In this document: in pieces, positions 45,374-47,699 of the stretch
Layout: every line of letters begins with the position of its first letter
Numbering within the stretch: position 1 is the first letter of the stretch
Assembly (NCBI RefSeq): GCF_002854065.1
Contig: NZ_CP024150.1
Reading direction: 5' to 3' (one strand)
Origin: Escherichia coli
GTDB lineage: Bacteria > Pseudomonadota > Gammaproteobacteria > Enterobacterales > Enterobacteriaceae
Length of the DNA stretch: 64,000 nt
Position numbers: made by a program

Positions 45374-47699
45374 TCACAATGATAATGATTCGTCGTTTGC
45401 TGTTATGCACTGATTAGAAAATAATTGTGAGTCAGTTCGTAATTGCATAATTTAAAACGTCTTTCTCCTACCTTTATTGTTTCCGATACTAATGTCCATT
45501 TTCGCAATAAAAGGACATTTAAGATGAATGCACGAAAGGCGGTACTGGCAGATTGTTCTCCAGAATACTCTGTAGGCCGTTAATCGGCCTCTCAATTGGG
45601 CCTTCACCCAGCGCATCGATGACACTCAGCATCTGCGTGGATTTCAGATCGTCCTAGGCCTCGCGTGGCTTGTGTCCTTTTCCGCCGCCTTTTCACATGA
45701 TGATTCTTTTTAATTGATATGATTAATCACAACAATAGTCACATCACATGAGTTTTACGCGATATCATCAAAATGCTGTTTGTTTTCTTGCAACCAGAAA
45801 ACTCAATCTGTTAACAGGATTAATAAGGGGTTTTATGAAATGTAACGTAATTGGTGCTATTGCAATTTTGGCAGCATCATCATGTGGATACGCAGCTACA
45901 AAAGAGGTCCCTATGAACCTTGTGAATTCTGATGGTAAAGAACTGCCTATTGGGAAAATAACTATCCAGGAAACCTTATATGGTCTGCTGTTCACACCAG
46001 AACTTCATTCTTTACCTGAAGGCATTCATGGATTCCACGTTCACGAAAATGGAAGCTGTGCCCCGGTGCTAAAAGACGGAAAACCTGTTGCAGCATTATC
46101 GGCTGGAGGTCACTTTGATCCGAAAAAGACCGGGAAACATCTTGGCCCCTGGTCTCCTGATGGTCACCTTGGCGATCTCCCTGCGCTGTACGTGACTAAT
46201 GATGGAAAAGCGAACTACCCGGTACTCGCACCGAAACTAACCGAATTAAAAGATATAAATGGACACTCTCTCATGATCCACATCGGTGGTGACAACCATC
46301 ATGACAATCCAGAACCACTGGGCGGTGGTGGGGCTAGAATTGCCTGCGGCATCATTCCATAATAAATATGGTAAGGAGTATGGCTCCTTACCTTTAATCT
46401 ACCGGATGATGAGTCCGCTCATCCTGTTGAAAAGTATCCTCACTCTTCTTAGACATATCTTACTTACAGGAAAATATGGATATATTCACATTTCTGAAAA
46501 CTGACTGTGGAACTGATAGTTTGTAAGCGGCTCGCCAAAAGCGTATTGATATTTACTGAGAGGTCAGATCAACTTTCCAGGGCAACAGATCGCGTACCCG
46601 TATCGTTAAATAACGGGTTCATGGTGAATTAAATAAACCTGAAAAAACAGTATGGTGAAATTCCGTAATAAAGAAATTGGTCCGGTATTATGCAAAATCC
46701 TCAAGGTGACGGCTGATACTGTTTTCACGGTAACAAGTCACCAGTAATTCATGGGTTGCACGGGTAAACGCCACATAAAGCACCGGAATCACTTCATGCT
46801 CATCCGCTGCACCAGAATGAACGAAAGAAGCATTGATAACTGCAACATACGGAAACTCCAGCCCCTTACTGCTCTGGTACGTCAGTAAATGCACCACATC
46901 CTTGCGTCGCGAGTATGTCTTCTTACTTTCACTGTCAAAGCAGGTGGTAAATGGTATCCCGCGTTGTGTCATAACGTCTTTCAGTTGTTTCACTGAAAAC
47001 TCTGCCGGACACAGAACAGCCATATCACTCCAGTGACCGCACAGGGCATAACGCTTCTCCAGCCATTCTGCAACCTTTCTGGCTTCATCACGTTCAGAAA
47101 CACAACGCAGGATTTTCGGCTCTGTGCCCTCTTCACCGCCCGCCTGTGGCTGAAGGAGTGGTATTTCACGATTCTGATGTTTTTGAAAATACTCGCGGGA
47201 GAATGCATAAGCAAAGTGCAGAATGCATTTCGGATTACGATAATTGACTGGCAGGACAGAAGTACGTCCTTGAGCCTGGATTCCCACACTGGCCAGTGAA
47301 AAGTTCATAGCCCGCTCACGACGGTAAATAGATTGGGCATCATCGTACATCAGGAGTAATGAACGGGATGAATTATCAAATAGACGGGCAATTAGAGCCA
47401 GCCAGCGACTGTCAAAATCATGCCCCTCATCCACCAGTACAGCATCATATCCGGTGCTGGTGATTTTTCCTCTGTTCACAGCCTCTTCCAGTGCGCTGAA
47501 GCATTTCTCCGGGTAATTCTTTCTGTCAGCCGTCACTTGAATAGCGTGGCGTTTTATCATTGAGGCACACCAGCTGTGAAAATGAGATACCGTAACCCGT
47601 GACGACGTCAGCCCTCTGGCTTCAATGCATTCCCGTAGATAGCTGGCCAACGTAATGTTGTAACACAGCACCAGAATCTTTCCGGATGTGGTTTCAGCT

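Follow-up and report, generated by a model that had tools for sequence, protein, structure and literature searches.

The sodC locus

We analyzed a 64,000-nt stretch (hereafter the window) of the Escherichia coli plasmid contig NZ_CP024150.1 (assembly GCF_002854065.1), with the focus on sodC, a gene for a periplasmic Cu,Zn superoxide dismutase (SOD), and on the fragments of phages and insertion sequences (IS) that surround it. A preliminary description of this DNA had placed sodC beside a decayed 5' fragment of a lambdoid tail/host-specificity gene, and had taken it for cargo of prophage origin that is now plasmid-borne between IS3 copies. The plasmid setting is borne out by the near identity of the window to plasmid p2017.06.05CC_1, since it differs from the reverse complement of positions 18311-82310 of that plasmid by 4 single-nucleotide polymorphisms and one 2-nt indel in IS3. 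Plasmid p2017.06.05CC_1, from human faeces in Viet Nam, is IncFIA/IncFII and conjugative according to MOB-suite typing. The gene lies in a mosaic block of 3,464 bp (45131-48594) that moves as one piece and consists, from left to right, of a filamentous-prophage scrap, an IS66-family left-end fragment, a stub of the phage gene J, sodC, an IS66-family right-end fragment and a gene for a helicase with NERD and UvrD domains.

The sodC gene (45835-46362, plus strand) is intact and encodes a precursor of 175 amino acids. It is the only long open reading frame (ORF) within 45100-46720 and is preceded by a ribosome-binding site, AAGGGG. Residues 40-174 of the product match Pfam PF00080 (Sod_Cu) at a score of 110.9 bits, where the cut-off is 28.9 (E 7.8e-32), and the whole protein matches PHROG 1975 (E 1e-87), a family of the moron category named 'superoxide dismutase precursor'. 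The amino acid identity to the SodC of Stx2a phages is 81.7%. The nearest solved structure is 1EQW (E 2.9e-60), the dimeric SodCI enzyme of the Salmonella phage Gifsy-2; it ranks above 1ESO, the monomeric E. coli SodC. The HGFHVH, GGH, GKH, GHLGD, MIH, GSC and ACG motifs fall in the same alignment columns as those of SodCI and of SodC-F, the prophage-encoded enzyme of E. coli O157:H7, and the metal assignment of these Cu,Zn-SOD motifs is established residue by residue in the family. The ratio of nonsynonymous to synonymous substitution rates (dN/dS) of sodC against its relatives is 0.08-0.13.

The N-terminus of the protein, read directly, is hydrophobic and contains a lipobox-like ASSC (Cys17), which corresponds to the AASC lipobox of SodC-F, and an A-x-A-like site, GYA/A. 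The signal peptide of SodC-F, which the window N-terminus resembles, has been reported as dual, for signal peptidases I and II (PMC2569942). The window SodC would be exported and possibly lipid-anchored via Cys17. In O157:H7, the enzymes SodC-F1 and F2 are dimeric, have a higher activity and stability than the chromosomal SodC, and are independent of RpoS, expressed in log phase and anaerobically, and partly lipid-anchored through the AASC lipobox, and they contribute to peroxide resistance (D'Orazio et al. 2008, PMC2569942). Expression, export and activity of the plasmid gene are predicted by homology, and it is expected to give the same periplasmic protection as SodC-F. The window enzyme would act in the manner of SodCI and SodC-F, removing superoxide that arises outside the cytoplasm, such as that from phagocytes of the host.

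The region between the J stub and sodC (45699-45834, plus strand) would hold the presumed sodC promoter. Alignment shows that the proximal 77 bp (45758-45834) hardly vary from one variant to another, even where IS66 has taken the place of all sequence farther upstream. A homologous 299-bp segment of O157 sodC-F served as the promoter fragment in lacZ fusions and gave RpoS-independent expression (PMC2569942). Downstream of sodC lies an intrinsic-terminator-like hairpin (46370-46392, plus strand) with a 10-bp stem (-20.8 kcal/mol, z -3.2). The stem is preserved in the phage and in plasmid pMTY9757 through paired changes, GGAG/CTCC versus GGGG/CCCC. A search of Rfam for structured RNA in 45100-46720 returned no match at E up to 1. 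The hairpin is followed by a 130-bp spacer (46393-46522) that occurs solely together with the sodC module: in the set of 5,426 complete E. coli genomes, its matches are confined to the 11 module-bearing plasmids. A remnant of the phage tail assembly gene I was considered for this spacer and ruled out, as tblastn shows no similarity to the I protein.

The J-gene stub

Upstream of sodC and on the minus strand, 45553-45698 is a pseudogene made of codons 1-49 of the lambdoid host-specificity/tail-tip gene J, with stops at codons 2 (TGA) and 15 (TAG). Translated from 45698 to 45553 the stub reads Met, stop, KGGGKGHKPREA, stop, DDLKSTQMLSVIDALGEGPIERPINGLQSILENN. When the frame is followed to 45519 it reads Met, stop, KGGGKGHKPREA, stop, DDLKSTQMLSVIDALGEGPIERPINGLQSILENNLPVPPFVHSS, stop, and aligns with J through codon 49. 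The N-terminus of the stub reads KGHKPREAKDDL...IERPINGLQSILENN, and the aligned N-terminus of J in the Stx2a phage Stx2_EH2201 is MGKGGGRAHTPREAKDNLKSTQMMSVIDAIGEGPIEGPVKGLQSILVNK. The stub has 71% identity to J over 52 residues by tblastn (E 1.5e-20). By blastn, its 146 nt are 78.8% identical to annotated gpJ 5' ends (E 2e-25; 173 phage records), and a match is found in about 2,800 of the 5,426 complete E. coli genomes (E 1e-24). With the two stops repaired, the peptide matches PHROG 31, 'central tail fiber J' (E 7e-19), and PHROG 1727, 'tail protein and host specificity' (E 2.6e-18).

The preliminary description had proposed a search against phage tail proteins, and the fragment does match phage J; its identification as a decayed 5' fragment of a lambdoid tail/host-specificity gene is upheld by the tblastn, blastn and PHROG matches and by the two stops. 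Its bounds are to be corrected in one part: 45553-45698 is J, but 45520-45552, which had been included in it, holds the first 28 nt of an IS66-family tnpA. A full-length J has about 1,130-1,165 amino acids; here 49 codons are left and homology stops at 45553. Relative to the N-termini of 41 sodC-linked phage J proteins, the stub departs from the invariant residue at 8 of 36 positions, and it is on account of these changes and of the two nonsense codons that we call it decayed. The dN/dS of the stub is 0.08-0.12, similar to that of functional J, which is uninformative because most of the divergence is older than the truncation. Part of the stub is annotated by PGAP as an incomplete 'hypothetical protein' pseudogene.

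Colinearity with lambdoid prophages

Donors and relatives were sought among annotated phages, complete E. coli genomes, species-representative genomes, a set of 5.8 billion proteins and IMG/VR viral contigs. The comparison with sodC-carrying prophages, also proposed in the preliminary description, gave a colinear match at about 79% nucleotide identity. Positions 45553-46416 run from the J stub through the intergenic region and sodC into a further 54 nt that hold the hairpin. They form a single match, 78.8% identical in nucleotides to two Stx2a phages and also to prophages of 644 complete E. coli genomes, most of which are O157:H7. Phage colinearity stops at 46416. The gene order in Stx2_EH2201 is I (minus strand), sodC (plus strand) and J (minus strand). 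We then counted the IMG/VR loci that encode a SodC at least 82% identical in amino acid sequence (range 82-90%). The start of J lies within 400 nt upstream of sodC and on the opposite strand at 41 of 41 such loci, and the end of I lies downstream at 38 of 41. A contig of 997 bp, encoding a 90%-identical SodC, carries both the J start and the I end. Because these flanks recur in the viral loci, this sodC clade is a fixed-position moron of lambdoid phages.

The window has the same arrangement, with the start of J located 136 nt upstream of sodC on the opposite strand. The window copy bears the scar of the moron position between I and J, and its prophage origin, as first proposed, is strongly supported by this colinearity and by the J neighbour at every viral locus counted. 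It no longer resides in a prophage. Permissive tblastn detected no similarity to I in 46363-46720 or anywhere else in the window, and no further J either, and the annotation of the window holds no other lambdoid genes, so that this is an ex-phage copy. The nearest SodC proteins outside Escherichia are the chromosomal SodCs of Pseudomonas, Halopseudomonas and Serratia (62-71% amino acid identity; loci L011-L088). The phage-type SodC is 58.9% identical to Gifsy-2 SodCI and about 56% identical to the SodC of E. coli K-12. These identities hint that the ultimate source of the sodC moron lies outside Enterobacteriaceae.

IS66-family fragments and related plasmids

The elements directly beside the phage piece, which the preliminary description did not mention, are fragments of IS66-family ends. 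The left fragment (45440-45552, plus strand) is 113 bp long and contains the terminal inverted repeat and the first 9 codons of tnpA (ATG at 45525). Positions 45450-45552 are 92% identical to the IS66 left end in pMTY9757 by local BLAST; 45440-45449 were assigned by terminal-repeat similarity, with 15 of 21 matches by eye, and 45440 is thus an inferred start. The outer terminus of this fragment is on the left and its interior is fused to codon 49 of J. The right fragment (46523-46600, minus strand) is 78 bp long, has its outer terminus, GTAAGCGGCTCGCC, at 46523 and is cut in the interior at 46600; it shares 95% identity with the IS66 right ends of pMTY9757 (both copies) and pESBL3171. The orientations of the two fragments are incompatible with both ends of one element, and no complete IS66 copies flank sodC in the window, just the 113-bp and 78-bp ends. 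The IS3 copies named in the preliminary description do stand on both sides of sodC, but the direct neighbours of the phage piece are these IS66-family ends and not IS3.

Other E. coli plasmids have a sodC variant (85% nucleotide and 87% amino acid identity) between or beside complete IS66 copies. In pMTY9757 the IS66 abuts exactly at the ATG of J, and 40 codons of I remain on the other side. In pESBL3171 the IS66 abuts at the equivalent of 45758, 58 bp nearer to sodC, and the IS66 on the downstream side is 114 bp closer than that of pMTY9757. Because the abutment points differ between plasmids, several IS66-family insertions must have occurred around the sodC moron. A state in which the J stub is present without sodC is seen in pE300444_144 (locus L007, 7001-9803), which keeps the IS66 left fragment, the J stub and 60 nt of the intergenic region, and in which ISEc23, an IS66-family element, replaces everything from 45760 onward. 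Across plasmids there are at least three different IS66 abutment points on each side. In the 85% plasmid variant the lipobox Cys17 is changed to Tyr (ATSSYG; L004, 6136-6663, and L005, 6082-6609), and this variant would be soluble only, if lipidation matters. An apparently chromosomal 85% variant in NZ_CM135810 was not used, as its mixture of rRNA, tRNA, ParA/ParB and pseudogenes points to a likely misassembly.

The mosaic block in plasmids and chromosomes

When the exact SodC sequence was looked up, it turned up on plasmid contigs as well as on contigs of 248-260 kb. The latter are chromosomal (loci L092-L094) and contain the block 45131-48594 in full length at 99.7-99.8% identity. On these contigs one neighbour of the block is a Zot/secretin filamentous prophage, and across the block from it lie either HGD-D/DUF445/MFS genes or a P4-type integrase. 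Because the block is found on chromosomal contigs as well, the step from phage to non-phage DNA was not necessarily taken on this plasmid. Among the 5,426 complete E. coli genomes the module is rare, being present in 11, all on plasmids, and in some module plasmids the left flank consists of an IS4 fragment and psiB, with the module from 45460 on and no IS3. Plasmid-encoded SodC of any kind is uncommon, being found in 56 of 72,556 PLSDB plasmid records, some of which are mislabelled chromosomes.

The left part of the block (45131-45391) is the filamentous-prophage scrap, which in the chromosomes continues from the secretin-gene end of the Zot/secretin prophage. In L093, the sequence up to 5557 (equivalent to 45391 of the window) has homologues in prophage regions of other E. 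coli that carry the annotations Zot/GspD/DUF2523. A membrane-protein-like minus-strand ORF of 46 codons, MQGMILVLLMKYLIGGSLFG..., is whole in L093, and in the window IS3 has cut it down to its 5' part. Since this ORF is complete on chromosomal contigs, the plasmid version of the block is derived at its left edge. A GC-rich stretch lies within the scrap at about 45270-45360. Remnants of two unrelated phage types, inovirus-like and lambdoid, are found here less than 600 bp apart.

The right part of the block is occupied by the helicase gene (46688-48478, minus strand), whose 596-residue product has the Pfam domains NERD, UvrD-helicase and UvrD_C. Along its whole length it corresponds to C3a187, 'NERD+UvrD', which PADLOC lists as a candidate anti-phage family (E 1.7e-141). 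The helicase gene is always linked to the sodC module, in plasmids and in chromosomes, with the IS66 scar between the two.

Origin of the plasmid-borne sodC

We consider it highly probable that sodC is a piece of phage moron DNA split from a lambdoid prophage and now carried on a mosaic block in the plasmid. The gene would have begun as a moron with its own promoter region and terminator, placed divergently between I and J as are sodC-F1 and sodC-F2 of O157:H7. A piece of about 0.86 kb, which starts with 146 nt from the 5' end of J and runs through the intergenic region and sodC as far as the terminator, would then have left the phage, and the J stub would be a dead passenger that has acquired two nonsense codons since. 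Judging from the end fragments that bracket the piece, IS66-associated insertions and deletions may have excised it from its phage context; the part of IS66 in freeing sodC from the phage is inferred from circumstantial evidence. On one side the mosaic would next have been joined to the filamentous-prophage scrap and on the other to the NERD+UvrD helicase gene, to give a 3.46-kb block that now circulates between E. coli chromosomes and IncF-type plasmids at more than 99.7% identity. In this plasmid, a copy of IS3 truncates the left edge of the block. In functional terms, sodC alone counts.

Several observations weigh against this account. A consensus scan found 0 sigma-70 promoter sites upstream of sodC. 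No closer donor phage turned up in the searches, the best copies having 89-90% amino acid and 83-84% nucleotide identity (L102, L103 and L099), and with the nearest phage copies at such a nucleotide identity the actual donor must be unsampled. The left junction, in which the interior of IS66 is joined to codon 49 of J, is an illegitimate join and not a transposition junction. The IS66 copies of pMTY9757 also lack 8-bp target duplications; an IS66 composite transposon was tried as an explanation and rejected, as there is no such duplication around the fragments in the window, around either pMTY9757 copy or around the pair.

The preliminary description implied another mechanism, namely that sodC entered the plasmid on a composite transposon made up of the two IS3 copies. 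Copy 1 (43873-45130, plus strand; 1258 bp) has intact orfA and orfB and the termini TGATCTTACC...GGTAGGATCA, is labelled 'IS3-like element IS3 family transposase' by PGAP, and abuts and truncates the sodC block with its right end. Copy 2 (56480-57739, minus strand) carries a 2-nt insertion (57289-57295) in the 5' part of orfB, which is found neither in copy 1 nor in plasmid AP027791; because orfB is frameshifted, copy 2 probably encodes no transposase. That sodC sits between IS3 copies is literally true. The copies are near-identical and enclose 11.3 kb that contains sodC, and the homology between chromosome and plasmid begins exactly at an IS3 terminus, all of which would suit a composite transposon. 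However, the copies are inverted. Copy 1 is flanked by AGT outside and ACT inside and copy 2 by ACT inside and GTA outside, so that the outer flanks lack a 3-bp direct duplication and insertion as a composite transposon is not demonstrated. Moreover, chromosomal homology stops at 48594, far short of copy 2, and the other plasmids with IS4 and psiB at the left flank hold the module from 45460 without any IS3. We regard the mechanism, which is unproven, as improbable. The AGT on the outside of copy 1 is the reverse complement of the ACT on the inside of copy 2. This would fit an IS3-mediated inversion and hints at one, but a match of 3 nt, with a chance probability of 1/64, is too short to count.

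Somewhat less probable again is the integration of a whole lambdoid prophage in the plasmid and its decay there until sodC and the J stub alone were left, with no small fragment ever imported. Gene-by-gene erosion of prophages that spares useful cargo is common, and the J stub is indeed truncated and carries stops. Yet the window holds no other I or J homology and no other annotated lambdoid genes, and the block is found on chromosomal contigs among different neighbours with identical end-points inside the phage piece. The identical end-points mean that the truncations predate the arrival of the block in this plasmid, an argument that concerns this plasmid and not an earlier replicon.

It is more unlikely still that the J stub was kept because it is functional, either as a promoter or regulatory part of sodC or as a small protein made from Met23. 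The stub does lie inside the stretch homologous to the 299-bp sodC-F promoter fragment (PMC2569942), and it is 98.7-100% conserved in all carriers of the module. Such identity, however, reflects recent common descent of the carriers; pMTY9757 and pESBL3171 keep an intact sodC without any J, and it is the proximal 77 bp alone that are conserved across variants. The ORF of 37 amino acids from Met23 (45632-45519) ends in IS66-derived codons, has no family match and is a pseudogene in the PGAP annotation.

Reverse transfer, in which sodC was plasmid or chromosomal cargo first and was picked up by lambdoid phages later, is very unlikely: although phage-type SodC is closer to the chromosomal SodC of Pseudomonas and Serratia than to Gifsy-2 SodCI or K-12 SodC, which puts the moron's ultimate origin in a bacterial chromosome, hundreds of genomes keep the phage arrangement intact, and a fragment of J, an essential phage structural gene, can only derive from a phage, which makes the phage-to-plasmid polarity clear for this copy.

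The carrier plasmid

Outside the block, the window contains a complete myo-inositol catabolism cluster (iolB, iolD, iolE, iolG, an ABC sugar transporter and an mmsA-like gene; about 19830-32888, minus strand) beside a MurR/RpiR regulator. Two umuD/umuC-type loci are located at 17867-19255 and 39334-41030, with umuC frameshifted in one of them. The plasmid also has duplicated psiB/ardA leading-region genes, and relaxase typing gives both MOBF and MOBP; together with the two umuD/umuC loci, this suggests that the plasmid is a fusion of two backbones. Genes resembling those of a type IV pilus or type II secretion system are found at about 58783-64000 (a GspE/PulE ATPase, a GspF-like protein, a prepilin peptidase, a lytic transglycosylase and a LuxR regulator). 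Just outside IS3 copy 2, at 57995-58370 (plus strand), lies a divergent gene like that for the B subunit of cholera toxin or heat-labile toxin, with an internal stop after ...SNGHIF, and PGAP labels it a 'cholera enterotoxin subunit B' pseudogene. No end of an A-subunit gene was recognisable in 57740-57994. With the type IV pilus genes and the toxin-B pseudogene, the carrier looks like a virulence plasmid of the enterotoxigenic E. coli (ETEC) kind.

Discussion

The closest known systems are SodC-F1 and SodC-F2 of O157:H7, encoded in CP-933R and CP-933V and in Stx2a phages such as Stx2_EH2201. They belong to the same clade as the window SodC and share with it the divergent position beside the start of J, the conserved proximal upstream region, the terminator hairpin and the lipobox-like N-terminal motif with Cys17. 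In contrast to them, the window copy is off the phage and on a plasmid, its J is reduced to 49 codons with two stops, its I is gone and IS66 fragments flank it; its allele is also a distinct lineage, with a closer resemblance to other phage copies (89-90% amino acid identity). SodCI of the Salmonella prophage Gifsy-2, like the sodC of Fels-1, is also a Cu,Zn-SOD moron carried by a phage and inserted in a tail-gene cluster on the opposite strand, and its solved structure, 1EQW, is the one nearest to the window enzyme; Gifsy-2 sodC, however, is located between homologues of L and Lom and not between I and J. The plasmids pMTY9757_IncFII, pESBL3171-IncF and others carry the same phage-type clade on IncF replicons with IS66-family elements on both sides, and pMTY9757 has likewise kept a phage remnant, that of I. 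They differ from the window in that their IS66 copies are complete and abut elsewhere, that the J stub is missing and that residue 17 is Tyr. The chromosomal sodC of E. coli, monomeric and RpoS-dependent, is of the same Pfam Sod_Cu family but more distant, as its lower identity and the lower rank of 1ESO indicate. Regulation and quaternary structure differ between the chromosomal and the phage SodC (PMC2569942).

We put forward, tentatively and with some doubt, that IS66-family elements may repeatedly have cut the sodC moron from the I/J junction, and that the resulting mobile cassette may spread on virulence plasmids of the ETEC and enteropathogenic E. coli (EPEC) type and into chromosomes. 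The different abutment points of IS66 on either side of sodC are what suggests it. If true, non-lysogens would gain a stable, growth-phase-independent and partly lipid-anchored SOD of the phage type, and there would be a documented route for virulence cargo of prophages to pass the limits of phage host range and immunity.

We found no published description of a plasmid-borne E. coli sodC or of this module, the one relevant report being that of D'Orazio et al. 2008 on the prophage copies (PMC2569942). What we describe is a new context for the known SodC-F/SodCI type of enzyme, and it is unsurprising to a specialist. The reshuffling of prophage cargo by IS elements is a well-known principle and the mechanism is not new; the value of the locus is that of a clean worked example, together with a correction of the 'hypothetical protein' label that PGAP gives to the stub. 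It is established that phage-type SodC, as in Salmonella SodCI and O157 SodC-F, serves fitness and virulence by countering superoxide from the host. The phage pedigree of the plasmid gene is proved by the 49-codon remnant of J, and the presence of an intact sodC with its own control region on plasmids of the conjugative type means that such phage cargo can leave the phage and travel by conjugation.

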